DNA from: a virus
Virus record (IMG/VR): IMGVR_UViG_3300045115_000211
Span: 49,195 to 113,194 of that record
Length of the DNA stretch: 64,000 bases
Direction: 5' to 3' (one strand)
A program made the translations under genes and the position numbers. This document shows positions 1,204 to 47,938 of the stretch, one piece after another (positions within the stretch are counted from its first letter, which is position 1; each line of letters begins with the position of its first letter). The notes beneath the pieces are model-generated. The model saw only the letters and a program-made list of their open reading frames with translations, was not told the DNA's origin and made no database searches.

Positions 1204-1803
1204 ATGCCGAAGTTCAGCGTCATCCTGGCGGATCCTCCCTGGCGCTTCGCCCCCATGGGCATAGACCCGTCGGTCGTCGCCGACAGGTACAAGGGCAGGT
1301 CTGCCGAGAGCCACTACGACACGATGGGCAGCCAGGAGTTGACGAGTCTCCCGGTGGCGAGCATAGCCGGCAATCCGTCCGTGCTGTTCCTGTGGACGAC
1401 CAGCCCCTTCCTGTCGCACGCCATCTGCACGATGTCCGCATGGGGGTTCCGGTACAAGACCGTCGCCTTCGCATGGATCAAGCAGAACAAGGCGGGGACT
1501 GACTGGGCTTCCGGGATGGGGTGGTACACGCTGTCCAACGTCGAGCTGTGCATCCTCGGGACCAAGGGGGCCACCCTCAAGCGGCAATGCCGGAACGTGA
1601 GGCAACTCGTCGTGGCACCGAGGCGCGAGCACAGCAGGAAGCCCGACGAGGTCAGGGCACGGATCGAGCGGATGTACGGCCCCGTGCCCAAGGTCGAGCT
1701 GTTCGCGCGGGAGCGGGCCGACGGGTGGACGTGTCTCGGCAACGAGGTGACTGGGAACGACATGGCCGAGGACATCATGGCCTTGGCGGAGGAGCGGCGA
1801 TGA
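1204..1803 (+). CDS. MT-A70 family adenine methyltransferase
   Basis: VILADPPW, LFLWTT, HSRKPDE and VELFAR motifs. Confidence 0.92.
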   Translation: MPKFSVILADPPWRFAPMGIDPSVVADRYKGRSAESHYDTMGSQELTSLPVASIAGNPSVLFLWTTSPFLSHAICTMSAWGFRYKTVAFAWIKQNKAGTDWASGMGWYTLSNVELCILGTKGATLKRQCRNVRQLVVAPRREHSRKPDEVRARIERMYGPVPKVELFARERADGWTCLGNEVTGNDMAEDIMALAEERR

Positions 1804-2508: not shown

Positions 2509-2765
2509 GCGACTTCGAGAAGGACAGCGACTGTGTGGCGTACGCCCTCAACCTGTGGGCCAACTTCATCGAGACGGGAGACCTCACGTTGACGCACGAC
2601 GATGTCGTCGGCCATCTTAAGGCTCTTGAATCCAACGACCAGACGTTCTCATGCCGCCACGAGAGGCAGACTCTGTTCGGCAAGCTGAAGGTCCTGACTG
2701 GGGACCAGAAGGCGTTCGTGGCGAGGCTGCGGGAACTTGCCAAAAAGCACAGGACTGCGTCTTGA
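2505..2765 (+). CDS. hypothetical protein
   Basis: MSDFEKD start in ATGA overlap; coding-like codon usage. Confidence 0.6.
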   Translation: MSDFEKDSDCVAYALNLWANFIETGDLTLTHDDVVGHLKALESNDQTFSCRHERQTLFGKLKVLTGDQKAFVARLRELAKKHRTAS

Positions 2766-3729
2766 TGTGACGAGACAACGCATCTGAAGAGCATTTGAAT
2801 TTCCTGTCCAGAAAAACGGTGGCATCGTGATAGAGGTATTGGTACATCCGAAAGAAGTTGCGCATCCCGTTGTGCTCGATCCTTACGACCCTTCCGCTTC
2901 GGGAGTTGTTTCTCGGTTTGGCTCTCCTCATTCCGCACTCGCGGCACACGACTTCATCAACATGGTTGATGAATTCAATCGTTCCTATCATTCCGAACGA
3001 GCAACTGCCAGAGTTTGTCTTACTGATAGACCACCAGCCATCCCCATCGAAGTACCCCCGGATGAAATGCCTAACAAGGTTTTCTCTGATGTGGGGGAAT
3101 GTCAGGCTTTCGGATTTCCTTGGCGTAACGCCACACGAAATAAGAGCCTTTGCAACAAGGCTGGAAAAGACTTTCAAATGAGTTCTGTGCCGAGTTTTCC
3201 CCGTTTGTTTGTCAATGTACTGGTCGAAGGAGATGGGATGGTCGGATTTCATAGCCGACCTAATCTTTTCCAAGTGCCCACAGTCCTTCCTGTTCAAACA
3301 CAGCCTGAACCCTCGTGTTTTGTTGTCGTTGTCGACGCACCCGTCGGCGGCAATGAACCCAAGCCAATAGGCCTTATCCTCGGAATCGATGCTATCAAAG
3401 AAGTGCTCATCGACGGCATGAGTTCTGCGATGTCTTGTCTCAAAGACGCCTTGTGTTTCGAGGATTTGCTTGACCTTGTTGTAATGGAGGTCAAAACTTC
3501 GTGCTATCTTGCTGGTTGGACATCCATCAGCAAACATCCTTATGACCGCTTGGAGGGTCTCGTGTGGAACGGGACACTGATCTTGGGCTATCAGGGCCGC
3601 TCTCCTCAAACAACTCTTGACCGTATTGCGGCCCAACCCCATCTCGACGGACAGCCTTCTTATCGCTTGTCCCGCATTGAATCTACGGATGATTTCTTCC
3701 GTCACTTGCTCGGACAGTTTGGCTGGCAT
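2617..3729 (-). CDS. free-standing double-motif LAGLIDADG homing endonuclease with N-terminal HTHs
   Basis: AYWLGFIAADG and HFIRGYFDGDG motifs; lower GC; opposite strand. Confidence 0.9.
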   Translation of the reverse strand: MPAKLSEQVTEEIIRRFNAGQAIRRLSVEMGLGRNTVKSCLRRAALIAQDQCPVPHETLQAVIRMFADGCPTSKIARSFDLHYNKVKQILETQGVFETRHRRTHAVDEHFFDSIDSEDKAYWLGFIAADGCVDNDNKTRGFRLCLNRKDCGHLEKIRSAMKSDHPISFDQYIDKQTGKTRHRTHLKVFSSLVAKALISCGVTPRKSESLTFPHIRENLVRHFIRGYFDGDGWWSISKTNSGSCSFGMIGTIEFINHVDEVVCRECGMRRAKPRNNSRSGRVVRIEHNGMRNFFRMYQYLYHDATVFLDRKFKCSSDALSRHIKTQSCAFWQVPAASPRTPSGPQSGPSACRTESASRGGMRTSGRWIQEP

Positions 3730-3800: not shown

Positions 3801-4967
3801 ATGAGAATAGGCCTATATGCCGCAACTCTTGACCCCATCACGAAGGGCCACCGCTGGATCATCGACGAGGCCGCCGGAATGTTCGACAAGCTCGTGGTCG
3901 CGGTCGCCGACAACCACGAGAAGCGCGGCAAGGTCATGTTCAGCGCCGAGGAGCGCGTCGCCATGGTCAAGGACACCCTCCCCCTTGGCCTCGAACTCGG
4001 CAATGACGTCGAGGTCGTGACGTACGCCGGCGGGCATACCCCGCCGTTCACGGCGCGGTTCGCCAAGGCCATCGGGGCGACGCACCTCATCCGCGGCATC
4101 CGCAACGAGGCGGACTTCACGGCGGAGCAGGCAATCCGTCACGTCAACCAGGACATCTGCCCGGAGGTCAGGACCGTCTTCCTCGTGCCGCCGCGGCACC
4201 TCTCGGAGGTCAGCTCCAGCATGGTCAAGGGCCTTGTCGGGTTCGACGGGTGGCGGGACGTCGTGGAGCGGTACGTCGATTCGCCTGTCGTGAAGCGGTT
4301 CCAGGCCAGGCGGCTGGAGGCCAGCGAGGTCCTGATGCGCCTGGGAGCGTCATACTCGTGCGCCTTCGCCGCCAAACAGTTCCTCGACAAGGCGTACGGG
4401 GACATGTCCGAGTCCAGCCGGGTCTACCACAACGACCGCCACATCAGGGAGTGCCTTGGGCTGATGGACATGGTGGTTTCCGACAGCCACGTCAGCCCCC
4501 AGGACTTCGACGAGATCGCCGCCGCCCTATGGTTCCACGACTGCGTCTACGACGTCGGGTCGAAGAACAACGAGACCCGCAGCGCTGGGGAGTTCGGGAG
4601 GTTCGCCTCCGAGATCAACACGGACGTCGTGGCGACCGTCAAGAGGATGATCGAAGGCACGAGGGAGCATGCGTTCAGCGGCGAGCACAAGGCGAACGTC
4701 GTCAGCGACATCGATATGGCGATCCTCGCGGCGCCGGCGGCGAGGTTCGGAGAGTACGAGGACGCGATCCGGCGCGAGTACGGCCACATCCCCGACCCAA
4801 TGTTCTACCCAGCCCGAAGGAGGTTCCTTGAGAGCTGCCTAGCCGGGCCGGTCTACTATGCCGAGAAGTTCCGGCCGCTTCGCGCGCGGATGGCCGAAAA
4901 CGTCCGGCGGCTGCTGGCGACCGAGCCGTACGCCAAGAGGTGGGATCTGCAAGGCAATGAGGGATAA
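3801..4967 (+). CDS. coaD: phosphopantetheine adenylyltransferase fused to C-terminal HD-superfamily phosphohydrolase
   Basis: DPITKGH, LIRGIRNEADF, VSSSMVK; then RVYH..H, FHD, NE.RSA, DIDMAIL, IRREY; AGGAG RBS. Confidence 0.9.
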   Translation: MRIGLYAATLDPITKGHRWIIDEAAGMFDKLVVAVADNHEKRGKVMFSAEERVAMVKDTLPLGLELGNDVEVVTYAGGHTPPFTARFAKAIGATHLIRGIRNEADFTAEQAIRHVNQDICPEVRTVFLVPPRHLSEVSSSMVKGLVGFDGWRDVVERYVDSPVVKRFQARRLEASEVLMRLGASYSCAFAAKQFLDKAYGDMSESSRVYHNDRHIRECLGLMDMVVSDSHVSPQDFDEIAAALWFHDCVYDVGSKNNETRSAGEFGRFASEINTDVVATVKRMIEGTREHAFSGEHKANVVSDIDMAILAAPAARFGEYEDAIRREYGHIPDPMFYPARRRFLESCLAGPVYYAEKFRPLRARMAENVRRLLATEPYAKRWDLQGNEG

Positions 4968-5499
4968 GTCCACCATAACAACGGCCGACGCCGAGAGGCT
5001 CCTGTCGAAGGGGTGGAGACTGACGGAACACAAGTGCGTCTTCCATGGCCATTCCTACTACGTGCATGACGAGTCCAGAAGGGGGCTTTGTGGCAGCGCG
5101 GCTTACATCAACAGGGACGTCTTCGATGCGCTCGTCAAGCGCGGACATCGTCCAGTCCGCCGCACGCATGCGTGACCCGTCCTTCGCGTCTCTTTTCCTG
5201 TCCGAGCCGTCAGGATGGAGCGACCGCGACCGCAGGGCCGACGCAGCGACCGAGGAATACGAGTCGCGGTGCGAGTCCTTCGACAGGGCCGTGTGCCGGA
5301 GGAGGAACGAGAGGGGAATAGCCATCCCGACGCTTCCCGGCGAACTGTGGGAGATCAACAGGCACGCCAGGAAGGTCCAGAAGGACGTCTGCGACAGGCA
5401 CGGGGTGGAATGGAAGGCATTGAGGGAGGCCTTGTGGCGCCTCGACAGGAGCGGAACGATCGTCCGTCGCGCCGCCGCGCCGCCGAAGGAGAGACAGCG

Positions 5500-5829
5500 A
5501 TGTGCGACATGAGGATCCAGGACAAGGCGGAGTACCGCCGCCTGCTCGACGAGATCGGAGCCGACTACTGCCCCGAGGGGAGGTACTGCATCTTCAAGGA
5601 GTTCCTCGTGGCGTCGCACCCCTCGCGTCGCCTGCTCGTCCAACTCAAGTGCTGCGACAAGGCAAAGTTCGCGTGGAGCAAGGACGGCGGCAAGGACATC
5701 GGATGGGAGGAGACGCTAAAACGCTGGGTAGATTCGGGATTGGCAAGGCGCTTTGCGGAGGTCTACGCGGACTCCCTTTCTCCAAGGGAAGTGTTCAGAA
5801 TGACATTCGAACAGCCGCAAGTCTCTTGA
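5500..5829 (+). CDS. hypothetical protein
   Basis: AAGGAG RBS before MCDMRIQ. Confidence 0.6.
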   Translation: MCDMRIQDKAEYRRLLDEIGADYCPEGRYCIFKEFLVASHPSRRLLVQLKCCDKAKFAWSKDGGKDIGWEETLKRWVDSGLARRFAEVYADSLSPREVFRMTFEQPQVS

Positions 5830-6512
5830 TCGTCGGCACCTTCACGATGCTTGGCTCCATTCGTGTTCCCCATCAGAGCTTTTCTGATTTTGTCCCTAGT
5901 TTCTTGGGATACTGGGTGTCCCATTCTTGCAGCACTCATCTTGGCTCGTGTGACGTCAGATATGATCTTGCCAGTTTCAGATTGACTGATCTTCAGACGC
6001 ACCGATGCTGGGATATGCCGACCCCAGTTGGGGCTTTTCGACCCCCTGAAAGCCTTGGATATTTTCGCTTTAGTCGCTTCCGACTGTGGGTGTCCTGGTT
6101 TCCCCAGTTTCGCAACTCGCATCAGCATCTTTGTATGCTCTGAATGAGGTCCGCGTTTCTTCCCAAGTTTGGCAATGCTCATCCTCCTGCGACTTTCTTC
6201 GCTATGCCTTGGCGCATGACCGCCGCCCATCATATTGTATCCATGGGCCCTGTCGGTAGTCCTATATGCGGCAATCAGGCGAGATTCTGCCTCGTCCAAG
6301 TTTTCAGGAGCGCAGTGCTCCAAGACTTCGAAAACAAAAGCATCCTCTCCGTGCTTGTTCCATGCGGCCTGAAGGTGGCGATTTGGATGGAATCCACGAC
6401 GCAGTTGTCCCCTGTGCCCATTCCATCTGTTCCTGATGTCCATGGATTGACCGATGTTCCGCTTCCCGTTGACGGTGTTCGTGATGCTGTATATGCCGCT
6501 CATCTTGCTCAC
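5763..6512 (-). CDS. GIY-YIG homing endonuclease with NUMOD3 repeats
   Basis: SGIYSITN...NIGQS, HPNRHLQAAW, GYN, repeated HSEE.R/K.MS motifs. Confidence 0.9.
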   Translation of the reverse strand: MSKMSGIYSITNTVNGKRNIGQSMDIRNRWNGHRGQLRRGFHPNRHLQAAWNKHGEDAFVFEVLEHCAPENLDEAESRLIAAYRTTDRAHGYNMMGGGHAPRHSEESRRRMSIAKLGKKRGPHSEHTKMLMRVAKLGKPGHPQSEATKAKISKAFRGSKSPNWGRHIPASVRLKISQSETGKIISDVTRAKMSAARMGHPVSQETRDKIRKALMGNTNGAKHREGADDQETCGCSNVILNTSLGERESA

Positions 6513-6667
6513 TTCGCGCCTCCTTCGACCCTTTCGAATGCTTCTTTGATAAGGTTCCTGACGAGTTGGGAAAGGTTCACGGAATGCTTTTTCTTGAGGA
6601 CGTCGAGCATGCGTCTCTCTTCGACCCCTATTTCGACATAGAATCCAATGCGCTTGTCTGTATTCAT
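6509..6667 (-). CDS. 52-aa ribbon-helix-helix-like regulator (not in ORF track)
   Basis: MNTDKRIGFYVEIGVEERRMLDVLKKKHSVNLSQLVRNLIKEAFERVEGGAK; GTGA overlap with the GIY-YIG start. Confidence 0.7.
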   Translation of the reverse strand: MNTDKRIGFYVEIGVEERRMLDVLKKKHSVNLSQLVRNLIKEAFERVEGGAK

Positions 6668-6813
6668 GCCCTATGGTTCTCTATAACGACTGGGAAATCC
6701 TTCGTCCATTTTGACCGTTGACTTCCCTGTCGGGGCATGCTACGATGCAGGGCGAAAGGAAGGTCAGGACCGATGGGCGAGGCGATTGAGATGGTGGAAG
6801 AGGAGGTGTTCCC

Positions 6814-7707
6814 ATGATCAGCAGGAGCAGGTCGAGCGGTGATTGGGCGTTGAACGTGTTCGAGGGGTTCCGCATCGATACGATGCTGCCGAAGCACACG
6901 AGGGTCCGCGAGCTGGCGAAGCAGGCCCAACAGGGCGGGATCATCCAGAACGCGGTCGGCGACGGCGCATCGTCCGACCCGTTCGTGTCCATGAAGGTCC
7001 AGAGGTGGGGCACCTTCAACGGCTGGGCCGATGGCGACTCCAAGGATCTGCCAGGATGGCGCCGCAAGGCCGTCAGGTTCTTCGAGCGCGCCCTCGGCGT
7101 CGCCCCGGCCCGCAGGGACGACCCTCCGAGCGGCAGGATCGACCCCCTCAGGGTTCTCATGGAGGCGAAGGTGTCCCTCGCGGAAGTCCGCAACTGCATG
7201 GACAGGATGGCGGCCTACGACGAGGCGATACGGCAGGCGGCGCAGGGAGGCCAGACCGCGCGGGTCGAGAAGCTGATGCTGGCCCGCAAGACAGTCCAGC
7301 AGGAGAGCGTCCTTCTCGCCGGCGGCTTCGGCAGGTTCCTGTCCGAGGCCCAGGCGATAGAGTTCGCGTCGAAGTGCCAGAAGGGGTTGCGGCTCGACTG
7401 GGCGGCCAACTTCGTCCGCCCCTTCCCTCCGGACGCCCTCGCCCGCAAGAAGGCGGCCGACGAGCTGATGGTGTTCGACAACTACGCCTTGCTGCACTAC
7501 GACCCCAAGGCGAAGGCGTTCTCGCTGACGGCCGCGCAGGAGGCGGCCAAGCGCGACCCCATCCTGTTCGGGCTGATCGAGGGGGTCAGGAAGCTGTACT
7601 TCGTGGCGGACTGGAAGGACGACGAGTGCGACCTGACGATGGACGAGGTCGCGAGGGTGCTGGGGCACGGCCCAGGGGAAATCGGGATCGATCCGACGAG
7701 GGAATAG
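6814..7707 (+). CDS. conserved large-phage hypothetical protein
   Basis: C-terminal DPILFG...LYFVADW...CDLT motif; GAGGAGG RBS. Confidence 0.75.
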   Translation: MISRSRSSGDWALNVFEGFRIDTMLPKHTRVRELAKQAQQGGIIQNAVGDGASSDPFVSMKVQRWGTFNGWADGDSKDLPGWRRKAVRFFERALGVAPARRDDPPSGRIDPLRVLMEAKVSLAEVRNCMDRMAAYDEAIRQAAQGGQTARVEKLMLARKTVQQESVLLAGGFGRFLSEAQAIEFASKCQKGLRLDWAANFVRPFPPDALARKKAADELMVFDNYALLHYDPKAKAFSLTAAQEAAKRDPILFGLIEGVRKLYFVADWKDDECDLTMDEVARVLGHGPGEIGIDPTRE

Positions 7708-7720
7708 GAAGGCGACCGCG

Positions 7721-8302
7721 ATGGGCGACGAGCACGAGTGGATGGGCAGGGTGGCCGGCGAGGCGAGGTTCGCCGCCAACCACAACGGCAGGGAGTGGTT
7801 CGAGACCAAGTTCGTCCCTTCCCTGCCCGAGGAGCACAGGGCGTTCGCCCTGGGGAAGCTGGCGGAGTACGAGCGGAGGCGCGCCAACGCGGGAGCGGCG
7901 GCAGGCGAGAAGCACGCCAGAAGCTGCCCCTACCGCCGCGCCGGGCTCGTGCCGATCCGGACCGTCCTGGCCAACGTGGGCGGACGCGTGGTCGTCGAGG
8001 GGAACGTGGTCAGTTGCGACTCGTGGCGCATCCACCTGTACGCCGCGAAGGGCGTCAGGTGCGCCCATTGCGGGATGGAGGGCACCACGTTCGCCGCCGA
8101 GAGGGCCAAGTCGCAGTCCACGCCCAAGTACCACCTCAACCTCTACCACGTCGCCGAGGGCGGCGAGGAGACCATGATCACGGTCGACCACATCGTGCCC
8201 AAGTCGAGGGGCGGCGGGAACCACGTCTCCAACCTCCAGCCCCTCTGCATCAAGTGCAACGGGCGCAAGGGCGACAGGATGCCGTCCGACGAGGCGGCAT
8301 AG
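7721..8302 (+). CDS. HNH endonuclease
   Basis: CAHCG, TVDHIVPKSRGG, NLQPLCIKCNGRKG. Confidence 0.88.
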   Translation: MGDEHEWMGRVAGEARFAANHNGREWFETKFVPSLPEEHRAFALGKLAEYERRRANAGAAAGEKHARSCPYRRAGLVPIRTVLANVGGRVVVEGNVVSCDSWRIHLYAAKGVRCAHCGMEGTTFAAERAKSQSTPKYHLNLYHVAEGGEETMITVDHIVPKSRGGGNHVSNLQPLCIKCNGRKGDRMPSDEAA

Positions 8303-8324
8303 GGAAAGGAAGCCTGGTGAAGCC

Positions 8325-8840
8325 GTGGACGACATGGGACTCGCTAGGGCCTTCGCGGAGTCCGATCCTGGGCTCAGGGTCTTCGTCCGGTCATGCCTGC
8401 GCGACGACTCCGACGCGGACGACGTCGTGCAGGAAGTCTGGCTCACGGTCGTCCGCAAGCTGCCGTCGTACGACAGCTCAAGGTCGTTCAGGGCATGGGT
8501 CTTCGGCATCGCGAGGATGCAGGTGCTCAAGTGGCGCCAGTCCAAGGCCAGGCGCCGGGAGTTCGCCGTGCCGGACGAGACCATCGCCCAGATGTCGCAG
8601 GCCGTCGAGGACGGGCCTGTCGGGCCCAGCGCGTGCGAGGACGCCATACGCAGGTGCCTCGAAAGGATGGGCGGAAGGCCGAGGGAGATGCTGCGCCTCA
8701 AGTACGCCGTCGGGCTGAAGTCGGCCGAGATCGCCAGGAGGCTGGGGATGACGTCGGGGGCGGTGGACATGGGGCTGACGAGGGCCCGCAGGGCCCTGCG
8801 CGCGGCGGTCACGGGCATGTTGAGGAGGGAGGGGGAATGA
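8325..8840 (+). CDS. ECF sigma-70 factor, resembling the Rhodopirellula/Verrucomicrobium family
   Basis: DADDVVQEV, FRAWVFGIAR (region 2); EIARRLGMTSGAV...RAR (region 4). Confidence 0.9.
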   Translation: MDDMGLARAFAESDPGLRVFVRSCLRDDSDADDVVQEVWLTVVRKLPSYDSSRSFRAWVFGIARMQVLKWRQSKARRREFAVPDETIAQMSQAVEDGPVGPSACEDAIRRCLERMGGRPREMLRLKYAVGLKSAEIARRLGMTSGAVDMGLTRARRALRAAVTGMLRREGE

Positions 8841-9723
8841 GCATCGCTGTTTTCGGGGACATCGTCGAGGGCAACGGCAGGACGATCCGGCAGAACAACA
8901 TGGCAAGGGCGCACGCCATCCCGCTGGGGGCGTTCGTGGAGATCGACTGCCCGGACGTCCCGGAGTGGCACGGGTGCCGCCTGTTCGTCGTCAGGCACGA
9001 CAGGGACTGCGACGGGACCCCCCTCTATTCCCTCGGGAAGAAGGGCGAGGACAACCCCTATGCCCTCCGGCTCAACCAGTGCAACGGGTGGAGCGAGGAA
9101 AGCCTGAAGGTCGTCAGGAACCCGCAGGAGGAGACATGCAAAGGAAGTGCGTCTGCAACGGCGGCGGCCATATGTGGTACGCCGACTCGTTCGACAAGGA
9201 CAACGGCAAGCCTTGCTCGTGGTGCAATCCCGCAGGGCTTGCCAAAAAGCACGGCGGCAGGCTTGGCGAGATCAGCGTCTGCGGCGTGTGGTCGGGGGCC
9301 AAGAGCCACAGGCTGACCGCCAGGTACGCCTGCGGATGCTCCTCCGCGATCCACGGGAACGGGCACCTGTCCCGCAAGCCGACGAGGATGCCGACCCTGT
9401 GCGCCAGGCACAAGAAGCCCATGACGTCGTTCCGCGAGTCGATGGTGATGGAGTGATGCGACCGGAAGGTGGAATCAGGAAGGGGACGCGTGTCCGGGTG
9501 CTGCTGGACGGCGAGGACGAGCCTTGCCTCGGCGAGCTGCTTGAGTCCCACGTCCAGGGATCCGAGGACATGACCCACTCCACGTCCATCCTGCTCGACG
9601 ACGGGAGGGTCGTCCAGTCCGACGGGTGCTGCTGGCTGCCTTGCAACCAGCTCGCCCCTTTGCCGTTGACTCCGTGACGGTATTCCGCTATGATGTCGTT
9701 GCCCTGAAGGAGGGGAACCGAAC

Positions 9724-10359
9724 ATGAAGACGGCAGAATACGCGATCGACCGCAAGGAGTTCGAGAGGTTCTGGGAGCGCGTCCAGAAGGAGGCCAAGCG
9801 CCTCTTCCCGGACGACAGCGGCGGCTCGCGCGTCGAGGTCAGGATGCGCGACTGCACCCGGGAGACAAGCACCGACGGGCTGCCCGTGCCCCACGCTCAC
9901 AACATCGAGACGGACGTCGAGTGGCGCGCCGCCATCGGCTACCTGTCCTGCAACGCCAAGTCCGCCGCCGAGCGCCTCGACACGTACCTGCGCCTGCACG
10001 ACATGGAGAGGCGAGCGGCCGAAGGCAAGGCGGCCCTCGCCAGCGAGTTCGAGGCCCTCGCCCAGTCCCTCGGGGTCACGATCCGCTTCGGAATTCGGCC
10101 TGTCCTGCCGAAAGGAACGACGTGGGATCACGCCCCGTTCGGCTCCTCGCGCACGGTGGCTGGGCACCCGTCCTCCTTCAGTTGCGACAACCTCTGGGAG
10201 TACCGCGATGGCGACCGCAAGAAGATGGTGGCCTGGGCGAAGGACGGGATTTCCGCCGTCCTCAAGACGGGCGGGGCGACTCCCAAGTTCTTCCTGATCG
10301 AGCCTCACGAGTCGTCGGGGTCGCTGTGGGCGTCCGTCGCCAAGGAGACGCAGGCATGA
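9724..10359 (+). CDS. hypothetical protein
   Basis: follows promoter 9666 and AAGGAGG RBS. Confidence 0.7.
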   Translation: MKTAEYAIDRKEFERFWERVQKEAKRLFPDDSGGSRVEVRMRDCTRETSTDGLPVPHAHNIETDVEWRAAIGYLSCNAKSAAERLDTYLRLHDMERRAAEGKAALASEFEALAQSLGVTIRFGIRPVLPKGTTWDHAPFGSSRTVAGHPSSFSCDNLWEYRDGDRKKMVAWAKDGISAVLKTGGATPKFFLIEPHESSGSLWASVAKETQA

Positions 10360-10519
10360 AGGTCCACATCGTCAGGATGTACGGGAACGTCGAGGCCATC
10401 TGCGACAACGAGGCCGACGTCGGGCGCATCAGGAGGGAACTCCTGGAAGGCGAGGAGCTCAAGGAAGACATCGTCGAGGTCGAGACTGTCGAGACGAACC
10501 AGGTCATCGGAGACCACGG

Positions 10520-11311
10520 ATGAAGGTACTGCTGACGAGCGGAGGGACGCGTACGGCGATCGATGCGGTGCGCCATGTGGGCAACATGTCCTCTGGCACC
10601 TTCGGGAACCACCTCTGCAGGGCGTTCCTTGAGGCTGGCCACGACGTGACGTTCCTGTACGCCAAGGGCAGCAAGTGCCCGCACGAGCTGCGTCTGTCGC
10701 TTGGGCAGGCATTGCTGGAACCCCAAAGCGACGACTGGACGTCCTGTGTCCAGCACGGTCTTGGCGATCTCGTGGCGGAACAGTTCGGCTTCCTGGCGTC
10801 GTGCCGGGACAGGTATCGCCCCACTTGGTACGACAACTTTGACGGCTACGCCGCCGAATTGTTCCGGCTCATCGGGAGCGTCCGCCCCGACATCGTCGTC
10901 CTGGCCGCCGCCGTGAGCGACTACGCCCCCGTCAAGGCGGAGGGCAAGATCAGCTCCGAGCTGGACGAGATGACGATACGGCTGGAGAAGACCCCGAAGC
11001 TCATCCGCAAGGTCAAGGATGTCCTGCCGGAATGCTTCCTCGTCGGGTTCAAGCTCCTCGTCGACAGCACGCAGGAGCAACTCGAAGCCGCGATGGCGGA
11101 CCAGATGGCGAAGGCGAGGACGGACATGGTGGTCGGCAACGACCTGCGGGACATCAAGGCCGCGAGGCACGTCCTGACGATCCTCGGGATCGACCAGCTC
11201 TTCTACCGGTTCGATCCTATGCCGGGCGCCGAGCTGGCGAGGGAACTGGCGGAGGAGATCACGACGCAGGCGAGGACGCTCCGCGGCGAGCACCGCCGCA
11301 TCGGGGCGTAG
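10520..11311 (+). CDS. coaB: monofunctional phosphopantothenate-cysteine ligase
   Basis: LLTSGGT..ID.VR...N.SSG, AAAVSDY, KISS, TPK, LVGFKL, VVGND. Confidence 0.9.
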   Translation: MKVLLTSGGTRTAIDAVRHVGNMSSGTFGNHLCRAFLEAGHDVTFLYAKGSKCPHELRLSLGQALLEPQSDDWTSCVQHGLGDLVAEQFGFLASCRDRYRPTWYDNFDGYAAELFRLIGSVRPDIVVLAAAVSDYAPVKAEGKISSELDEMTIRLEKTPKLIRKVKDVLPECFLVGFKLLVDSTQEQLEAAMADQMAKARTDMVVGNDLRDIKAARHVLTILGIDQLFYRFDPMPGAELARELAEEITTQARTLRGEHRRIGA

Positions 11312-11831
11312 GAGGACGACGATGGCATTCACGTGCAAGGATTGTGCGCCAGAGAGCGCCGGATGGCTGTTCGACTTGGCGATGGGTGTCAGCCGTGGAC
11401 CGTGCGAGGACTGCGGCAGGGTCTCCGACTGCATCGACTGGCACGGGGACTCGCGTTCCACCGGCGACAAGCCGAAGGGAGAACCCCTTGACGCGCACAG
11501 GTACGACAGCCGCGAGGACGAATGAGCCCGAAGCTCGACAGGAAGGACTGGCCCAAGCCGCCTCCGTTCGTGAGGCCGGACAGCCTGTGGCTGGTCGTCT
11601 ACGAGTGCCGGTACGACGTGATCAGGGTGTCGCCCCAGGGGGACGGGTTCTTCGCGCCGGGCCAGGACGTCCTGTGGGGGTTCAGCAGCGTGACGGAGTG
11701 GGTCAGGGAGATCGTGCCGCCGGGCGAGGAGGCTGCGAGGGCGGCGTGCCCGAGGTGCGGATGCTAGGCGATGGACCCCTTCGGGATGGGCGTCGTGGTA
11801 CACGACATCGGGAAATGCGGAGGGATCAGGG

Positions 11832-12236
11832 ATGTCAAGCACTAGGATGGCGATAGTCGTACGGCGTGACCTGAACATGCCGCCGGGGCTGCTGGCGGCG
11901 CAGGTCCTGCACGTGGGGATGCTGTTCGTGCAGGACTCATGGAAGGTGTGCCGCCACGAACTCGGCGAAGACCGGTATTCCCTTGAGTTCGAGCCTGGCG
12001 AATGCGAGTGGATACAGCAGCCATACGTCGCCGTGCTAGGCGTGGACACGCCCGAGGAGCTCGCGGCCGTCCAGAAGATGGGCGAGGACGAGAAGTTGCC
12101 CGTGAGGGTTTGGAAGGACGTCATACCGTCCAAGGTCCTCGAAGGGCGCGTTCTGGAGTGCGTGGTCGGCATATCCATCGGGCCCGCCGACTCCGACCGG
12201 ATCAGGAAGGCGACGGGGACGCTGCCGCTGTTCTGA
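11832..12236 (+). CDS. divergent peptidyl-tRNA hydrolase 2 (Pth2)-like protein
   Basis: IVVRRDLNM..G..AAQ..H and SIGPA....I.K.TG.LPL; start may be 11847. Confidence 0.8.
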   Translation: MSSTRMAIVVRRDLNMPPGLLAAQVLHVGMLFVQDSWKVCRHELGEDRYSLEFEPGECEWIQQPYVAVLGVDTPEELAAVQKMGEDEKLPVRVWKDVIPSKVLEGRVLECVVGISIGPADSDRIRKATGTLPLF

Positions 12237-12246
12237 GGAGGACGAC

Positions 12247-13404
12247 ATGAAGGTGCTGGTGGGCATGACCGGGAGCGTGGCGACGACCATAGCCCCCAAG
12301 ATCGTCAAGGCGATCGAGGATGGCGTCCCACTTCTGGACTCCGTCGAGGTCGTGATGACCGACAAGGCCCAGATGTTCTTCGGGGCGGATGCCCTGCGGC
12401 GTCAGGCTGGGGTCAGGGTCTACACGGAGCGGGACGAGTGGATATGGAGCAGGAGAGAGCACCCGAACTTCAACAGCCCATACCCCATCCCACCCGAGGA
12501 CAAGTGGCAGAAGGGAGACCCCATCCTGCACGTCGAGCTCGCCAAGCGGTCGTCCTGCCTCGTCATCGCCCCGGCGTCGGCCAACACCCTAGGCAAGATG
12601 GCGCACGGCATCTGCGACAACCTCCTGACGTCCGTGTTCCTCGCGTGGCGGAGGAGCCGCCCCGTCGTCGTCGCCCCGTCGATGAACTCCCACATGTGGT
12701 CGTCCCCCGTTGTGCAGGCCAGCCTCAAGGACCTGCGGGCGACGAACCCCAACATCGTCGTCGTGCCTCCCGTCGAGAAGGAACTCGCGTGCGGGGACGT
12801 GGGGGTCGGGGCGCTCGCCGACGCGGGCGACATAGCCAAGGCGGTGGCTTGCGCCCTGCGCTGGGACTTCCCCCTTCCGGAGACGACCTGCCCTGGCATC
12901 CCCGTCGGGAACCACCTCGGCTCGTTCGGGATCGTCCGCCGGCATGGCAAGCGCCATTGCGGGGTCGACCTGTACTGCCGGAACGGGACGATGGTCACGG
13001 CGGTCGAGCCCGGGGTCGTCGTCGCCATCGATGGCTTCACCGGGGCGTCCGTCGGCTCGCCATGGTGGAACGAGACCAAGGCGGTCAAGGTGGAGGGGGC
13101 GAGCGGGGTCGTCTGCTACGGTGAAATCAGGCCGTACTTGAGCCTCAAGGTCGGCGACATGCTCGGCAGGGGAGACCCCTTGGGGCAGGTGGAGCAGGTC
13201 CTGCCGGACGGACAGTTGCGCGGCGACATCCCCGGCCACTCGCTATCGATGCTCCACATCCAGCTCTACGAGCATGGCCGCGTCCACAAGGACGAGTCGT
13301 GGCTGGAGGGGCAGCCCCAGCCCGGCGGCGTCCTCGACCCCACGCCCTTCCTGCTGGACTGCTGGAAGGGCCTGACGCTGGACATGCCGGAGGCAAAGGC
13401 GTGA
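12247..13404 (+). CDS. coaC: phosphopantothenoylcysteine decarboxylase (HFCD flavoprotein) fused to M23-like domain
   Basis: TGSVA, LHVEL, APASANTLGKMAHGICDNLL, PSMN, LACGDVGVG; then HCGVDL, VGD...GD.LG, LDPTPFL. Confidence 0.9.
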   Translation: MKVLVGMTGSVATTIAPKIVKAIEDGVPLLDSVEVVMTDKAQMFFGADALRRQAGVRVYTERDEWIWSRREHPNFNSPYPIPPEDKWQKGDPILHVELAKRSSCLVIAPASANTLGKMAHGICDNLLTSVFLAWRRSRPVVVAPSMNSHMWSSPVVQASLKDLRATNPNIVVVPPVEKELACGDVGVGALADAGDIAKAVACALRWDFPLPETTCPGIPVGNHLGSFGIVRRHGKRHCGVDLYCRNGTMVTAVEPGVVVAIDGFTGASVGSPWWNETKAVKVEGASGVVCYGEIRPYLSLKVGDMLGRGDPLGQVEQVLPDGQLRGDIPGHSLSMLHIQLYEHGRVHKDESWLEGQPQPGGVLDPTPFLLDCWKGLTLDMPEAKA

Positions 13405-14428
13405 ACATCCTGATCATCGCAAGGCACAGGATGCGGTACTGGTGGCGCAGGTCAGTTAAGGCCTTGGGGTTCTGCCCAGATTGCTGGAGCATCCTGAACT
13501 ACACGACGAGGGGCAGGCCGATATGCCCGAGGTGCGGGAGGTAGACCTCCACGTGAAGTGGCACGGCAAACGGTTGCGTGGCGTGACGCGGTGGGAAGTC
13601 CGGCATTCCGAGGGCGCTGACCACGGTCTGCGCCCGCAGAGGTTCGGTTCGCGACGCGAAGCAGTGCTCCGCGCCCGCGAGTGGAACAAGGACTTTCCGG
13701 GACACGTCGTGTGCCCGGTGTTGCCACACGCCCAGCCTCGCCCTGTTCGTCACATCAAATGAGACAGACGCAGCGGTCAGGACATGCCGCGCCGAAGCGA
13801 AAGGAAACGGGGATGAGAAAGCACACGGTCAAGGTGACGGTGTCTGGGTCGAGGGGGACAGGGCTCACGACGATCGCCGAAGTTATCCGCCAGGCCCTTG
13901 AGCAGGCCGACTTCGAGTGCGAGGTCTCGTCGGGATTGCAGAGGGAGTTCGACGACCTTCCCGGCGGCTCCTTCGACCTTCGCTGCGGCGCCGTCAGGGA
14001 AAAGACCATGGTCGTCATCGGGGAACTCGCCTGCCGCCCTGGCAAGGCGGGGAAGTAGGCATGGGCTGCATCGAATATCCCGACATGCCGGCCGACGTCG
14101 TGCCAGACAAGTGCAGGTCGTGCGACGGGCATTGCTGCAAGATATACGCCGACCACGATCACGGAGGCGGCAGGCCGTGGACGGTGTGGTTCGAGGAGTG
14201 GTGCGAGAACTGGCTCGCCGAGTTCGCCGCGACGGAGGCCGACAAGCGCTTCGTCCCGTTGTTCGATCCGCTTGAGGTCCACATGGGAGGCAACGAGCAT
14301 ATGCTCGCCGACCTGCGGGCGAGGGGCATCGATCCTGACTCGTGCCAGTACCGGGGACAGTCGGGATGCTTGCTTCCGAGGGAGTTCCGACCGAAGGTGT
14401 GCAGGCTGTATGTCTGCAAGGAGGCTCA

Positions 14429-15073
14429 ATGAAAGAAGTTGTTGAGGCGCGGGCGACCATGAAGGTCCGCAACTTCATGCAAGGGGCGGCGATAGGGGTT
14501 CTTCTTCTTTCGATCGTCGTTGGCGTGCTGTGCGCCATCGGGAACGACCGCCGCAAGGCGACCGCCAGGGGCGTCAGGGTCGGATCGTCGAGCCTGTCCG
14601 TCAAGTTCTCCCCCAAGGGCGGCTGCGCCGACGCCATCGTGGCGGAGATCGGCAAGGCGAAGGAGTCCGTCCTCGTGCTCGCCTACTCGTTCACGTCGCG
14701 GCCCATCTTCGCCGCCCTGCTGGAGGCCAAGAGGAGAGGGATCGACGTCAAGGTCGTCGTGGACGGCGGCCAACTGGAGGTGAGGTCGCTGGTCTGGGAG
14801 TCCTACTCCAACGGCATACCGACGCTCGTGGACTGCAGGCACGCGATAGCCCACAACAAGGTGATCGTCATCGACGACAGGGTGGTCATCACGGGGTCGT
14901 TCAACTTCTCGGCGGCGGCCGAGAACAGCAACGCCGAGAACCTCCTCGTCATCAGGTCGAAGGACGTCGCGGCGCTGTACGGGTCGAACTGGGCCGAGCA
15001 CGCTGGGCACTCCGTGGCGCCGATGGGAGTATCCGACAGGCCGAAGAGGCGCACCATCGAGGAGCAGGAATAA
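14429..15073 (+). CDS. phospholipase D-family (Nuc-like) nuclease with N-terminal hydrophobic segment
   Basis: HNKVIVID...TGSFNFS...NAEN single HKD motif; FSPKGG; AYSFT. Confidence 0.92.
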   Translation: MKEVVEARATMKVRNFMQGAAIGVLLLSIVVGVLCAIGNDRRKATARGVRVGSSSLSVKFSPKGGCADAIVAEIGKAKESVLVLAYSFTSRPIFAALLEAKRRGIDVKVVVDGGQLEVRSLVWESYSNGIPTLVDCRHAIAHNKVIVIDDRVVITGSFNFSAAAENSNAENLLVIRSKDVAALYGSNWAEHAGHSVAPMGVSDRPKRRTIEEQE

Positions 15074-15127: not shown

Positions 15128-16033
15128 ATGAAGACAAGACTGCAACTGCTCGATGCCCCACATGAAGTCCACGAATCAATACTGGTTGACGAGACAATCG
15201 CCAAGTTTGGCTATGATCCGCGGCTACTCAAGGCGGCCAGCCAGAAGTTGGTAGTCAAGAGGTTTGGTTGCTGCGGACTCGTGGCTGACAGGGGGTATAG
15301 AGCCGCATCGCAACAGCATTCTTGCCAGAGATGCGCGAACAAGCGTCGCTCGATTGAAACGGCATCCATAAGGTCGGAGCGAATCAAGACATGGCTCAAA
15401 ACACATACCCACTCCCGCCTCGGCATCAAACATACGGCGGAATCAAAAGCCAAGATGAGCGCCTCTCAAAGAGGACGAGTCATACCTCCAGAGACGCGCA
15501 TCAAATGGATGGGGAAGAAACTATCTCCAGAATCGCGAGCCAAGTTGAGCCAAGCATTGATGGGCAAGCCCTGTCCCCAAAAGGCCTTGGATTACTGGAA
15601 GGACCCCGCTCATCTAGGTGTCAATCATCATCGGTATGGCGTTCGTCCGCCACATGCCCACAAGGTTTGGTACACATGCCAAAATGGAATGCGGATTTGC
15701 TTCCGAAGCACCTGGGAGGCTCGCGTAGCCCGTCACTTCGATGAACAAGGAACAACATGGGAATATGAAACCAAGATGTTCCCAGTCTCGTACGAATGGA
15801 ACGGCTCAAGAAAGGAATCAACTTACCGATCTGATTTCTGGTTGCCAAGCCTTGGTTGCTATGTCGAAGTCAAGGGATTGTGGAGAGAAGAGTATGCGAC
15901 CAAGTTCAGGGCTTTCCGTGAACAATACCCAGAAGTTGTTGTCGAGGTTTGGGACAGGGCCGTCTTGCGGTCAAAAGGGATCAGAACTGGGTATGTAGCC
16001 TATGGAGAATTCAATGAGGACGACGTACGGTGA
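15128..16033 (+). CDS. NUMOD3 + PD-(D/E)XK-type putative homing endonuclease
   Basis: HTAESKAKMS repeats; FRSTWE, WEYE, DFWLP...YVEVKG; lower GC. Confidence 0.8.
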   Translation: MKTRLQLLDAPHEVHESILVDETIAKFGYDPRLLKAASQKLVVKRFGCCGLVADRGYRAASQQHSCQRCANKRRSIETASIRSERIKTWLKTHTHSRLGIKHTAESKAKMSASQRGRVIPPETRIKWMGKKLSPESRAKLSQALMGKPCPQKALDYWKDPAHLGVNHHRYGVRPPHAHKVWYTCQNGMRICFRSTWEARVARHFDEQGTTWEYETKMFPVSYEWNGSRKESTYRSDFWLPSLGCYVEVKGLWREEYATKFRAFREQYPEVVVEVWDRAVLRSKGIRTGYVAYGEFNEDDVR

Positions 16034-25298: not shown

Positions 25299-25362
25299 GT
25301 TGCCAGTTGGACCAAGGTGGTTCAACGTGTCGTAGAAACGAAGGAAGAACAGGAGAGTGAGT

Positions 25363-26265
25363 ATGTCGCAGAAGTCGCAGAAGGTCGAGTTCGAGGTTAA
25401 TGGAGTTCGCTATGTGGTGTTCGTCGATGCGCGGAGGTCCAACCCTAACGGGCAGGGACAGGGCGAGAACCAGCCCAGGCACTTCGACGACGGCACCGTG
25501 TGGGCCAGCGCAGAAAGCATCAAGCGCGGCATCAGGGACACGTGGATCGCAGAACTGGATGGCGTCCCCGGCTGCGACGTGTTCGTCTACCCCAGGCGCC
25601 CCATCGTGGAGGCCATCGCTGCGGCCCGTCCCGGACGCCAGCGGTTCGACGACGCCGGCGAGATGGCTGCGGCGGTACGCCAGAAGTACATCGACGCACG
25701 GGCGTTCGGTGTCGTCCTGGCAGACGGCAAGGCCGAGAGCGGCGACGATGACGATGGCGGCTCCAAGAAGAAGTCAAAGCAGCTTTCGATCGGGCTCAGG
25801 GGGCCAGTCGTCGTCACCGACGCCGACTCCGTCGAGCCCACGCCGATCGAGGAAATGGACATCTCTCGCTGCTGTCCCCACAAGGACGACAACGACAAGG
25901 ACCACAACCAGGGGAAGAAGTGGTTCGTCCGCTACGGCCGCCTGCGCTTCTGCGTCTATGTCGAGCCGCACATGGCTCGCCAGAGCGGGTTCAGCAAGGA
26001 AGACCTCGGGCGCCTGGAGGATGCCCTGAAGGACGTCTACAAGCACAGGCGCACCGCCAGCCGCCCCGACATGAGGACCGTGGCCGTCTACCGGCTGACC
26101 CCTCGCGAAGGCATGAAGCCCTCGTCGAGGGCGATGGACGAGATCACCGACCGCATCCAGTCCAAGCGGGTCGTCCCCGGAGACGTCCCGACCGAGGGGT
26201 GCTACTCCCTGCCCAACGCCGAGGAGTTCTGCACCGAGCAGGTTCTCGTCGAAAGGATCGACTGA
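25363..26265 (+). CDS. cas7: type I-C Cas7 (Csd2)
   Basis: SNPNG...N.PR, SIKRGIRD, YIDARAFG, LRGPV, GFSKEDL; AGGAG RBS. Confidence 0.92.
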   Translation: MSQKSQKVEFEVNGVRYVVFVDARRSNPNGQGQGENQPRHFDDGTVWASAESIKRGIRDTWIAELDGVPGCDVFVYPRRPIVEAIAAARPGRQRFDDAGEMAAAVRQKYIDARAFGVVLADGKAESGDDDDGGSKKKSKQLSIGLRGPVVVTDADSVEPTPIEEMDISRCCPHKDDNDKDHNQGKKWFVRYGRLRFCVYVEPHMARQSGFSKEDLGRLEDALKDVYKHRRTASRPDMRTVAVYRLTPREGMKPSSRAMDEITDRIQSKRVVPGDVPTEGCYSLPNAEEFCTEQVLVERID

Positions 26266-26272
26266 CCGACAC

Positions 26273-26309
26273 GATTGCCGCCTGTGGCTGCTTGCCACAG
26301 GCGGCAATC
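26273..26309 (+). repeat. perfect 16-bp inverted repeat between cas7 and cas5
   Basis: GATTGCCGCCTGTGGC-TGCTT-GCCACAGGCGGCAATC. Confidence 0.9.
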
Positions 26310-26326
26310 AACCAAGGGAGGCAACC

Positions 26327-27007
26327 ATGGCTACCAGCAGCAACGTCAGGGTCCTGGTCGGGATTCGCGGGCGCAGGGCCTGCTTCTCCAACCCGTCCGC
26401 CGGCAAGATCAACAAGTTCTCGTACCCGTTCATCACGGTGTCGGCGGCGCGAGGAGTGGTGGCGTCCGTGTTCCATCGCCCGCAGATGGACTGGGTGCCG
26501 ACCCGCATTGCGGTCATGAGGGCCGGACGGTCCGCCAACGTCGCCAGCAACGAAATCGACTTCGATCTGTCGTCGACCGATCCCGTCTTCGCCGACGAGG
26601 CAAGGATGCAGGTCAGCGCGCGGATTCTCGTTGACGTCGACTACATCATCGAGGCCGAGCCGGTCGTGCTCTGCCCCGGAACCACCGATGACCCGAACAC
26701 GCCGGAGAAGTATGCCGCACAGTTCAACCGCATCTTGGTGGACGGCAAGGGGCTGTACTACTCCACGCCGTGCCTTGGCCCGCGCCAGTACGTCGGGCGG
26801 CTCTATCCCGTCGAGCGGTTCCCGGAGCGGGGGTGCGCGATCCCCGACCTGGAGGTCCGATCCATGTTGGTCGGCATCTCCAAGGGCGCCGACAGGCGCG
26901 ACGGCGGACGGGACTATCCCGTTTTCGCCGACATCCGCCTCGTAGATGGGATCTTCTCCGCCCCGAGGTTCGTGTCGTCCATGTTCAACCCTGGAGAATC
27001 GGCATGA
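26327..27007 (+). CDS. cas5: type I-C Cas5 (Cas5d)
   Basis: G.RACFSNP, SYPFITVSAARG, DVDYIIEA, PCLGPR. Confidence 0.92.
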   Translation: MATSSNVRVLVGIRGRRACFSNPSAGKINKFSYPFITVSAARGVVASVFHRPQMDWVPTRIAVMRAGRSANVASNEIDFDLSSTDPVFADEARMQVSARILVDVDYIIEAEPVVLCPGTTDDPNTPEKYAAQFNRILVDGKGLYYSTPCLGPRQYVGRLYPVERFPERGCAIPDLEVRSMLVGISKGADRRDGGRDYPVFADIRLVDGIFSAPRFVSSMFNPGESA

Positions 27008-31234: not shown

Positions 31235-31271
31235 AATTGGACGAGCCGTCTGCCGGATGAGGACAGAGCAA

Positions 31272-32678
31272 GTCGCTCGCCACGGGCGAGCGTGGATTGA
31301 AACGACTCCACCCGTCGGGATCAATGGCGGACAGAGGTCGCTCGCCACAAGCGAGCGTGGATTGAAACCCCGACTCGTTCCTGCTGCCCGAGTTCGACGA
31401 GTCGCTCGTCACAGGCGAGCGTGGATTGAAACTGTTCGGGCTTTTGCGACCAAGCCTGATAGCGCTTGTCGCTCGCCACAGGCGAGCGTGGATTGAAACA
31501 GGTTGTTGCCGAGCGCCGCGAGCCGCAACACGAGTCGCTCGCCACAAGCGAGCGTGGATTGAAACGACTCTCGCCGCCGGCATCAATGAAGGTCATGGTC
31601 GCTCGCCACAGGCGAGCGTGGATTGAAATGCGCGCTCGCCGTACGCCTGCCCAAGCTCAGGGGCGTCGCTCGCCACATGCGAGCGTGGATTGAAATGGGT
31701 CTTCGGGCAGGCACAGACCCTGTAGGTATGTCGCTCGCCACAGGCGAGCGTGGATTGAAATAGCGCCTGCTTGGCGGCGATGTAGGCGTCCAGTTGTCGC
31801 TCGCCACAGGCGAGCGTGGATTGAAATGAGAGCGAACGCCGCGGACATCGCGGCACGACGGGTCGCTCGCCACAGGCGAGCGTGGATTGAAATATCTGGG
31901 TTCGGTCCCTGTCGCCGATGACGCGACGTCGCTCGCCACAGGCGAGCGTGGATTGAAACCTCCCGTACCCGCCGGGCATGCTCAGGTGCTACGGTCGCTC
32001 GCCACAGGCGAGCGTGGATTGAAACGACCGTGAGGGCCTGCCCCAATGTATGTGGCGGTCGCTCGCCACAGGCGAGCGTGGATTGAAACGCGTACGTGCA
32101 ACTCGTACGAAAGCTGGCCAACGGTCGCTCGCCACAGGCGAGCGTGGATTGAAACCTTCACTTGCCCCCGTCTCGCCGCTCGGCGTGTCGCTCGCCACAG
32201 GCGAGCGTGGATTGAAACGCCCTGCATGCCGTCAGGGCCGAGGCGGTGAAGATCGCTCGCCACAGGCGGGCGTGGATTGAAACGTGACGAACGGGGAGAC
32301 AACGGTCGACCCTCTGCGTCGCTCGCCACAGGCGAGCGTGGATTGAAACGCCTCCAAAGCGCCGCGCCACGGCCGCCATGGAGTCGCTCGCCACAGGCGG
32401 GCGTGGATTGAAATATGATGTTCGAACTGGACTGCCCGATCCCGTCTGGTCGCTCGCTACAAGCGAGCGTGGATTGAAACATGTCGAGTCCCTCCTGATA
32501 CGCGCCCACCATGGAGTCGCTCGCCACTGGCGAGCGTGGCATTGAAACAAGGTCCGCAGGATATCGATGTGGCCCGACGAGGTCGCTCGCCACAGGCGAG
32601 CGTGGTATTGAAACCGCAAGCCCCGCTGATCGACATCACCTGCCCGGTCGCTCGCCACAGGCGAGCGTGGATTGAAAC
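31272..32678 (+). CRISPR. type I-C CRISPR array, 22 repeats / 21 spacers (31-35 nt), plus a repeat remnant at 31226-31237
   Basis: consensus GTCGCTCGCCACAGGCGAGCGTGGATTGAAA[C/T], 32 bp, palindromic. Confidence 0.98.
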
Positions 32679-42036: not shown

Positions 42037-42258
42037 CGTCAAGGACGAAGGAGGAACGCCATGAGCGACGGACAGATCGGCCTGCACACCCTGCTGCTCG
42101 GCAAGCAGGCGACGCTTTGCACGGGGGAAAAGACCACGATAGTCGCCGTGTGGACGGACGGCGGGATTCTGTGCTTGGCCTTGGCGAACGAGCAAGGCAG
42201 GCTACAGGTAGCCCTCTTCGGCAAGCACTCGTCGAGCGACCTGAAGGTCATCCTGTAG

Positions 42259-42403
42259 GCGGCACAGTGGCCTATATGCCTCATCGCGGGGGCGACATGT
42301 TCTCCGGGTGCCCACCCACTCGCTCGCAGGCGGGCTTGTGCACCCACTCCAGAAAGGCTCGTTGGGCTTCCGCGTCCGGACACCCACCCACTTCGGCTAC
42401 CAT
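42259..42403. other. candidate replication origin
   Basis: intergenic; C-rich to G-rich skew flip; three CACCCACT copies (42313, 42341, 42385). Confidence 0.55.
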
Positions 42404-47926: not shown

Positions 47927-47938
47927 GAGCATCGCGGC

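Follow-up and report, generated by a model that had tools for sequence, protein, structure and literature searches.

The DNA analysed here, referred to below as the window, is a stretch of 64,000 nucleotides that forms the final 64 kb (positions 49195-113194) of the linear 113,194-bp IMG/VR virus record IMGVR_UViG_3300045115_000211. A 9.8-kb region of it holds three genes, a CoaD-HD fusion, a stand-alone CoaB and a CoaC-M23 fusion, which are predicted to serve coenzyme A (CoA) biosynthesis. Why should a phage carry the middle of this pathway, and is the pathway inherited as one? Our analysis gave two conserved units instead of one, namely CoaB together with CoaC and an M23-like zinc domain on the one side, and CoaD fused to an HD-type domain on the other. 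We therefore consider it most probable (roughly 55%) that each unit is an auxiliary metabolic module, independent of the other and carried by huge phages, and that the two by chance stand 5.5 kb apart in the window and boost or uncouple the CoA supply of the host.

All three genes named in a preliminary description of this DNA were found at the positions given in Table 1 and were identified with Pfam, NCBIfam and PHROGs. Judged by their families, motifs and folds, the predicted enzymes are real, have intact catalytic residues and jointly cover the route from 4'-phosphopantothenate to dephospho-CoA, as had been proposed. Residues 14-179 of CoaD-HD scored 123.7 bits with the coaD model TIGR01510, above its curated equivalog cut-off of 103.3, and 126.2 bits in a six-frame search. 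A profile search of the PDB with the CoaD half reached phosphopantetheine adenylyltransferase (PPAT) at an E value of 2e-46, and in the AlphaFold model of the fusion (pLDDT 89, pTM 0.88) residues 10-182 matched PPAT 4nah with a Z of 21.7 (VIA). The phage proteins were aligned with E. coli MG1655 coaD and dfp products as references. Residues T10, H18, K42, R88, R91, E99 and S129/S130 of E. coli CoaD are all kept in the phage CoaD; the T/HxGH motif with the catalytic His18, the residues K42, R88 and R91, and the SSxxV(R/K) motif are moreover invariant in the CoaD-HD fusion family. Because the relatives of CoaD-HD begin at the methionine encoded at 3801, this start is supported over the longer open reading frame (ORF).

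CoaB, of the phosphopantothenate-cysteine ligase type, scores far above the gathering score of its Pfam family (Table 1). Its best NCBIfam models are those of monofunctional CoaB, and it stays below the equivalog cut-off of both (NF005231, 128.1 vs 265; TIGR02114, 117.9 vs 217.2); the nearest solved structures in a profile search of the PDB are Streptococcus pneumoniae CoaB (2gk4) and human PPCS (1p9o). The protein carries a 60-residue insertion and belongs to a divergent viral lineage. In the alignment with Dfp, E. coli N210 corresponds to N22 of the phage CoaB and is kept, and the TSGG, AAAVSDY and FKLL motifs as well as D15, R18, N22 and K143 are invariant in 17 phage CoaB homologues. The conserved lysine of the E. 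coli K289 region is present as K143, the exact K289 column being ambiguous in the pairwise alignment.

The CoaC domain, of the phosphopantothenoylcysteine (PPC) decarboxylase type, likewise falls below the NCBIfam equivalog cut-offs (TIGR02113, 106.6 vs 261.4; TIGR00521, 110.4 vs 219.7, a model that also covers the absent CoaB half). Searched against the PDB, its profile reached AtHAL3a (1e20) and human PPCDC (1qzu) at an E value of 1e-55, and EpiD and MrsD at about 1e-20. The AlphaFold model of the CoaC-M23 protein (pLDDT 93, pTM 0.90) gave Z values of 23-25 for the CoaC domain against CoaBC, HAL3 and PPCDC (VIA). E. coli Dfp residues H75, N125, M128 and C158 correspond to phage H95, N147, M150 and C182, of which H95, N147 and C182 are invariant in the homologues. 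CoaB and CoaC are two separate genes in this phage, in agreement with the earlier reading.

The C-terminal part of the CoaC-M23 protein is a zinc-site domain of the M23/LytM fold. Its own PF01551 score lies below the cut-off (Table 1), and the domains of its relatives reach 31-37 bits. Residues 205-373 gave Z values of 14.2 with EnvC LytM, 14.0 with StM23, 13.9 with lysostaphin and 13.3 with LECT2 (VIA), and the alignments with EnvC LytM, StM23, lysostaphin and LytM (Z 12-14) span about 120-132 residues. Compared with E. coli MepM, the zinc-ligand positions are kept, namely the HxGxD motif (H237, D241) and the last histidine of HxH (H337), all invariant in 25 homologues; we take these three residues to be the zinc ligands by reference to LytM and lysostaphin. 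Both catalytic histidines are replaced in 25 of 25 homologues, YxH reading YGE (E293) and HxH reading MLH (M335), and the domain is therefore not classed as an active M23 peptidase. R325, D327 and H331 lie in a loop that is specific to this family. Because the protein opens directly with the CoaC flavin-binding motif, it carries no secretion signal.

In a search of 185,579 prokaryotic species (one genome per species), no full-length CoaC-M23 fusion was present among the best 80 cellular matches. The best of these cover the CoaC part only, with an identity that does not exceed 39% when the entire part is counted, although one search pattern had been taken from the M23-like domain. The fusion is therefore better regarded as a viral lineage than as a recent acquisition from a host, and the M23-like domain is apparently a virus-specific, conserved third component of the CoaB/CoaC module.

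In the second half of CoaD-HD, residues 213-367 match the PHROGs family phrog_19425, 'phosphohydrolase', and no Pfam HD match was obtained even at an E value of 10. Across the family, the metal ligands H224, H256-D257 and D315 are kept, and so are H220 and E336. Foldseek with the whole model returned PPAT chains only, and the domain surfaced only in the VIA-wide search, where residues 181-390 matched catalytic domains of cyclic-nucleotide phosphodiesterases (PDE) over about 200 residues (Z 14-15). The domain also matched the HD hydrolases 2pq7, YpgQ and YedJ with Z values of 11-14. For helical folds, both sets of Z values stand only moderately above background. Both the H...HD...D metal-binding motif and the helical HD/PDE fold thus place it among the HD superfamily phosphohydrolases. 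Its neighbours in the Atlas, stand-alone relatives of the domain from bacteria, are uncharacterised and bear the label 'NMDAR2C subunit family' or 'HD superfamily phosphohydrolase'. Identity with AcpH, the acyl carrier protein phosphodiesterase, was rejected by sequence (hhalign probability 1%, no PF04336 match), although the domain may have an analogous activity.

The fusion of CoaD to this domain is genuine and conserved, and its family is small. About 13 protein clusters contain it, as do the 462-kb phage LR756500 and two IMG/VR records, and two further loci have a homologous HD gene 3-4 kb from coaD. As the CoaC-M23 fusion also recurs in other phage genomes and protein clusters, both fusions reported earlier are upheld. 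CoaD has other fusion partners in the metagenomic proteins P0137, P0140, P0143 and P0144, where a methylguanine-methyltransferase DNA-binding domain (PF01035), CoaE (PF01121) and a cyclophilin-type isomerase (PF00160) were seen.

The record as a whole encodes ribonucleotide reductase, an NAD-dependent DNA ligase, homing endonucleases and a type I-C CRISPR-Cas system, which bears out its description as a phage-like genome. CheckV rates it about 62% complete. A six-frame search of the 113 kb with hidden Markov models found neither coaE (TIGR00152) nor coaA of type III (TIGR00671) or type I (TIGR00554), type II and archaeal pantothenate kinases not being part of the search. The absence of coaA (type I or III) and coaE that had been noted for the window hence holds for the whole record; it is provisional because about 38% of the genome is missing. 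The same search gave no acyl carrier protein, phosphopantetheinyl transferase or TANGO2. A kinase lead based on AAA_33 was rejected, as the 113 kb contain only weak P-loop matches within AAA ATPases.

Whether the three genes travel together was then asked of related phages. The CoaC-M23 family is large: its full-length homologues, 43-64% identical, fall into at least 120 clusters, and the contigs that carry them reach 622 kb. An alignment of 25 CoaC-M23 homologues retrieved 36 related IMG/VR loci, while a single-protein query retrieved none. CoaB (PF04127) is present in 33 of these 36 CoaC-bearing records (in 8 of 9 if only those with a completeness of 90% or more are counted) and mostly adjoins CoaC, usually directly upstream. 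CoaD behaves differently: TIGR01510 reaches 70 bits or more in 5 of the 36 records and exceeds its cut-off in 2, and only one of the nine genomes at least 90% complete has any CoaD match, at 29.9 bits. The reverse survey agrees with this. Relatives of coaD are frequent in viral contigs (148 were found), and cultured jumbo phages, namely those of Caulobacter, Brevundimonas, Myxococcus and Microcystis, commonly have a coaD that stands alone; yet among 24 large coaD-bearing viral records a CoaB domain occurs in 3 and a CoaC domain in none. The idea of one co-inherited three-step pathway, on which the preliminary description had relied, therefore fails for CoaD. CoaB with CoaC, and CoaD, are separately inherited, and their co-residence in this record is an exception. 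A further case is probable, since P0126 (CoaD-HD) and P0013 (CoaC-M23) come from contigs of equal length (507,347 bp) and may thus share a single one.

The M23-like domain follows the first unit in more than one arrangement. It is fused to CoaC with CoaB upstream in 16 of the 36 loci as well as in the window, while in 10 of the 36 it is encoded by a gene of its own and the order is M23-CoaB-CoaC. The 735-kb phage LR756501 has CoaC-M23 followed by CoaB, and in the Pseudomonas phages Milchi and Astolliot a CoaB-like gene adjoins an M23-like gene with no CoaC. Conversely, one related genome (locus L018, genome G014, 175,823 bp, rated 100% complete) has a CoaC-M23 relative aligned to query residues 93-372 and no CoaB domain. 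Together with Milchi, this shows that the M23-like domain does not need both enzymes at its side and can occur with just one of them, be it CoaB or CoaC. When all ORFs of the 36 loci were clustered, only generic phage neighbours (YopX, TnpB-like, helicase, HNH, AAA, DNA ligase) and no metabolic partner emerged. Neither the window nor the related loci gave a defence or counter-defence context for the CoA genes, and the neighbours seen in the window (hypotheticals, HNH, sigma factor, PTH2) do not recur beside the module in relatives.

From these data we infer how the two modules may act and what the phage may gain. In module 1, made up of CoaB, CoaC and the M23-like zinc domain, CoaB would ligate cysteine to 4'-phosphopantothenate, and CoaC, as a Hal3-type flavoenzyme, would decarboxylate the product to 4'-phosphopantetheine. 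The M23-like domain, with its re-tooled active site, would be an obligatory cytoplasmic partner and not a cell-wall peptidase; it may be a zinc-dependent helper that handles the cysteine or thiol substrate, or an adaptor that couples the separate CoaB and CoaC. Our best guess is accordingly a thiol-handling zinc site, or a non-catalytic adaptor that replaces the covalent CoaB-CoaC fusion of bacteria. In module 2, consisting of CoaD fused to the HD/PDE-fold phosphohydrolase, CoaD would adenylylate 4'-phosphopantetheine to dephospho-CoA, and the probable task of the HD domain is to provide or remove a phosphorylated ligand of this step. The first and last steps (CoaA and CoaE) would be left to the host. 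As a net effect, CoA flux would be raised, or freed from host feedback control, during a long infection. In E. coli, CoaA and CoaD are control points of the CoA pathway, and in mycobacteria CoaB is allosterically inhibited by acyl-CoAs; a bypass of feedback is therefore plausible.

Several observations weigh against two CoA-supplying modules. CoaB and CoaC both score below the NCBIfam equivalog cut-offs given above, and the textbook pathway leaves no room for the conserved zinc domain, which means that the true substrate could be another one. Nor is a supply role backed by the neighbourhood, since nothing metabolic (a pantothenate kinase, for example, or a gene for cysteine supply) stands repeatedly beside the module in the 36 loci. 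With the record at its present completeness, coaA or coaE may lie elsewhere in the genome. Finally, the phage would duplicate essential steps of its host for no evident reason.

The first two of these points would also suit a different product: CoaB, CoaC and the M23-like domain might act on another carboxylate (a peptide or small metabolite) and yield a cysteamine-ended compound instead of a CoA precursor. The canonical pathway has no role for an invariant peptidase-fold zinc domain, EpiD and MrsD, which are HFCD relatives of CoaC and also among its structural matches, decarboxylate peptidyl-cysteines, and Milchi combines CoaB-like and M23-like genes without CoaC. We nevertheless hold this unlikely, for CoaC keeps the ACGD clamp cysteine (C182) which PPC decarboxylases use to finish the reaction and which, to our knowledge, EpiD-type enzymes lack; the nearest solved proteins are true PPC decarboxylases by a wide difference in E value, and the catalytic asparagine, the lysine and the nucleotide motifs of CoaB are intact. 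A similarly small chance is given to a broader proposal, in which the M23-like and HD domains would be new virus-specific phosphopantetheine enzymes (e.g. for cysteine or thiol delivery, and for phosphopantetheine release or recycling) and would form, with CoaB, CoaC and CoaD, a salvage route that keeps or redirects the CoA/dephospho-CoA pool upon shutdown by the host or by a defence. That the genes are host-derived passengers, or sit on a mis-binned or chimeric contig and serve no phage function, is scarcely credible. The record is an incomplete metagenomic contig and has a block of higher GC at 42-50 kb; on the other hand, the codon-position GC of the three genes matches that of other phage genes, their closest homologues stand on viral contigs at 43-65% identity, compared with the lower cellular values over the CoaC part, and the fusions are shared by many genomes of large phages. 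This conservation largely refutes an artefact.

Two further proposals assign the genes to a conflict with the host or to RNA. By analogy with the NARP pathways for NAD+, CoA or 4'-phosphopantetheine might be rebuilt after a host immune effector has destroyed it, with the HD hydrolase fused to CoaD possibly recycling a breakdown product; the same genome does invest in conflict systems, having type I-C CRISPR-Cas and many nucleases. Such counter-defence is improbable: our literature search found no paper on a CoA-depleting defence and we know of no defence that depletes CoA, CoaB/CoaC and CoaD are not co-inherited as a unit, and the module is not repeatedly accompanied by genes of defence or anti-defence. 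As CoaA and CoaE are absent, rebuilding from pantothenate, or up to finished CoA, would moreover still need the host. A role linked to RNA, in which CoaD with its HD domain would raise dephospho-CoA as a non-canonical initiating nucleotide that caps phage transcripts, or would serve another RNA or translation function, appears very improbable. CoaD without CoaE does yield dephospho-CoA, and of these genes coaD is the one that jumbo phages most often have by itself. Genes of RNA and translation also stand close by: PTH2 lies between CoaB and CoaC-M23 in the window, and Pth overlaps the coaD start in Brevundimonas phage Kabachok (L126 2588-3510). LR756500 has the order CoaB, Pnkp-like (HD+AAA_33), RNA ligase; an RNA ligase directly follows M23-CoaB-CoaC in locus L037, and is separated from coaD by no more than a few kb in L077, L044 and Caulobacter phage C2. 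However, only a small number of the roughly 120 loci show such adjacencies, and large phages commonly encode RNA ligases. PTH2 is not found again beside the module, the Pth/coaD adjacency was not seen in other loci, the Kabachok Pth similarity is marginal (E 0.016) and the gene after Kabachok coaD is not an HD domain. The CoaB/CoaC/M23 module would furthermore be left unexplained. The reading of two separate auxiliary modules thus remains the one that we prefer.

Table 1. Coordinates of the CoA genes and of other features in the window (position 1 is the first letter of the 64,000 nucleotides).
Feature	Position	Strand	Evidence or remark
CoaD-HD fusion	3801-4967	+	ORF open from 3771
PPAT domain of CoaD-HD	~3810-4307	+	
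HD/PDE-fold domain of CoaD-HD	~4323-4940	+	
Stand-alone CoaB (phosphopantothenate-cysteine ligase type)	10520-11311	+	PF04127, 102.2 bits vs gathering score 22
PTH2-type peptidyl-tRNA hydrolase	11832-12236	+	PF01981, 48.6 bits; between CoaB and CoaC-M23
CoaC-M23 fusion gene	12247-13404	+	
CoaC (phosphopantothenoylcysteine decarboxylase) domain	12247-12861	+	PF02441, 94.6 bits, residues 1-171
M23/LytM-fold zinc-site domain fused to CoaC	12859-13404	+	PF01551, 23.5-25.5 bits, below cut-off 28.7, residues 236-317
MT-A70 methyltransferase	1204-1803		
LAGLIDADG homing-endonuclease-type gene	2617-3729	-	low-GC patch, directly upstream of coaD
HNH homing-endonuclease-type gene	7721-8302		
PLD-family protein	14342-15073		
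NUMOD3 + endonuclease I, homing-endonuclease-type	15128-16033		
Type I-C CRISPR-Cas	25357-32678		
cas7	25357-26265		
cas5	26327-27007		
cas8c/Csd1	26770-28836		
cas3	28829-31234		
CRISPR array	~31271-32678		after cas3; ~21 repeats
High-GC block	42000-50000		GC 0.71-0.73
NAD-dependent epimerase/dehydratase	48186-49448		within the high-GC block

GC is about 0.62-0.66 across the region of interest, and the third-position GC of the three CoA ORFs is as high as that of the neighbouring phage genes. A megablast search of 50,697 phage records with the 9.8-kb region gave no match. The stretch from CoaD-HD to CoaB contains hypotheticals, an HNH endonuclease and an ECF-like sigma factor, and the 935-bp gap between CoaB and CoaC holds three small ORFs. 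PTH2 was considered as a member of the CoA module and rejected, as it does not recur beside CoaB/CoaC in the 36 related loci.

The remaining features of the window are listed in Table 1. The CRISPR array is built of a 32-nt repeat whose end reads ATTGAAAC; near the type I-C system of the window, adaptation genes were not observed. The block at 42000-50000, with its GC above the 0.62-0.66 found elsewhere, has a strongly positive GC skew and contains, besides the epimerase/dehydratase gene, mainly unannotated ORFs; it could be of different origin or a sugar-modification island. In the related loci, the neighbourhoods with an RNA ligase span 5412-8705 in L004, 10001-13471 in L037 and 3001-6432 in L127.

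CoA is as central a cofactor as NAD+, yet our literature search found no paper on phage CoA synthesis, on a CoaC-M23 fusion or on CoA depletion as a defence; coaD is already annotated in several published jumbo-phage genomes. The present analysis defines two compact units, a widespread trio of huge phages (CoaB, CoaC and a re-tooled zinc domain of the M23 fold) and a rarer CoaD-HD fusion. Since each of them pairs a textbook enzyme with a domain of unassigned function, they offer a handle on new steps or regulation in phosphopantetheine metabolism. Should they do no more than boost flux, the modules would be ordinary auxiliary metabolic genes of unusual architecture.

Among known systems, a parallel is seen in NARP1/NARP2, in which phages encode part of an NAD+ reconstitution pathway and lean on host steps for the remainder. 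The CoA genes are likewise a partial cofactor pathway with the remaining steps left to the host, but they are not inherited as one unit and have no defence context. CoaD resembles bacterial PPAT (E. coli 1b6t; TIGR01510) in its score above the curated cut-off, in keeping H18, K42, R88, R91 and S129, and in its fold (VIA Z 21.7), and differs by the fused, uncharacterised HD/PDE-fold domain. With the monofunctional PPC decarboxylases AtHAL3a (1e20, 1mvn) and human PPCDC (1qzu), CoaC shares the fold, the GxTGSxA flavin site, the active-site histidine, PxMNxxMW and the ACGD clamp cysteine; the phage protein differs in that its C-terminus bears a zinc domain of the M23/LytM fold, about 170 residues long. 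The same two chemistries are represented by bifunctional CoaBC (E. coli Dfp; Mycobacterium smegmatis 6tgv, VIA Z 25.4 to its CoaC half), and the equivalents of H75, N125, C158 and N210 are kept; the phage CoaB and CoaC are separate genes, however, and stand closer to the monofunctional types of Firmicutes and eukaryotes. Finally, the M23-like domain shares its fold, the HxxxD motif and the last histidine of HxH with both active (MepM, lysostaphin, LytM) and degenerate (EnvC, SpoIIQ, LECT2) M23/LytM domains, whereas it is set apart by the replacement of both catalytic histidines, by its own loop, and by being a cytoplasmic domain free of a signal peptide that is fused or adjacent to CoA enzymes.

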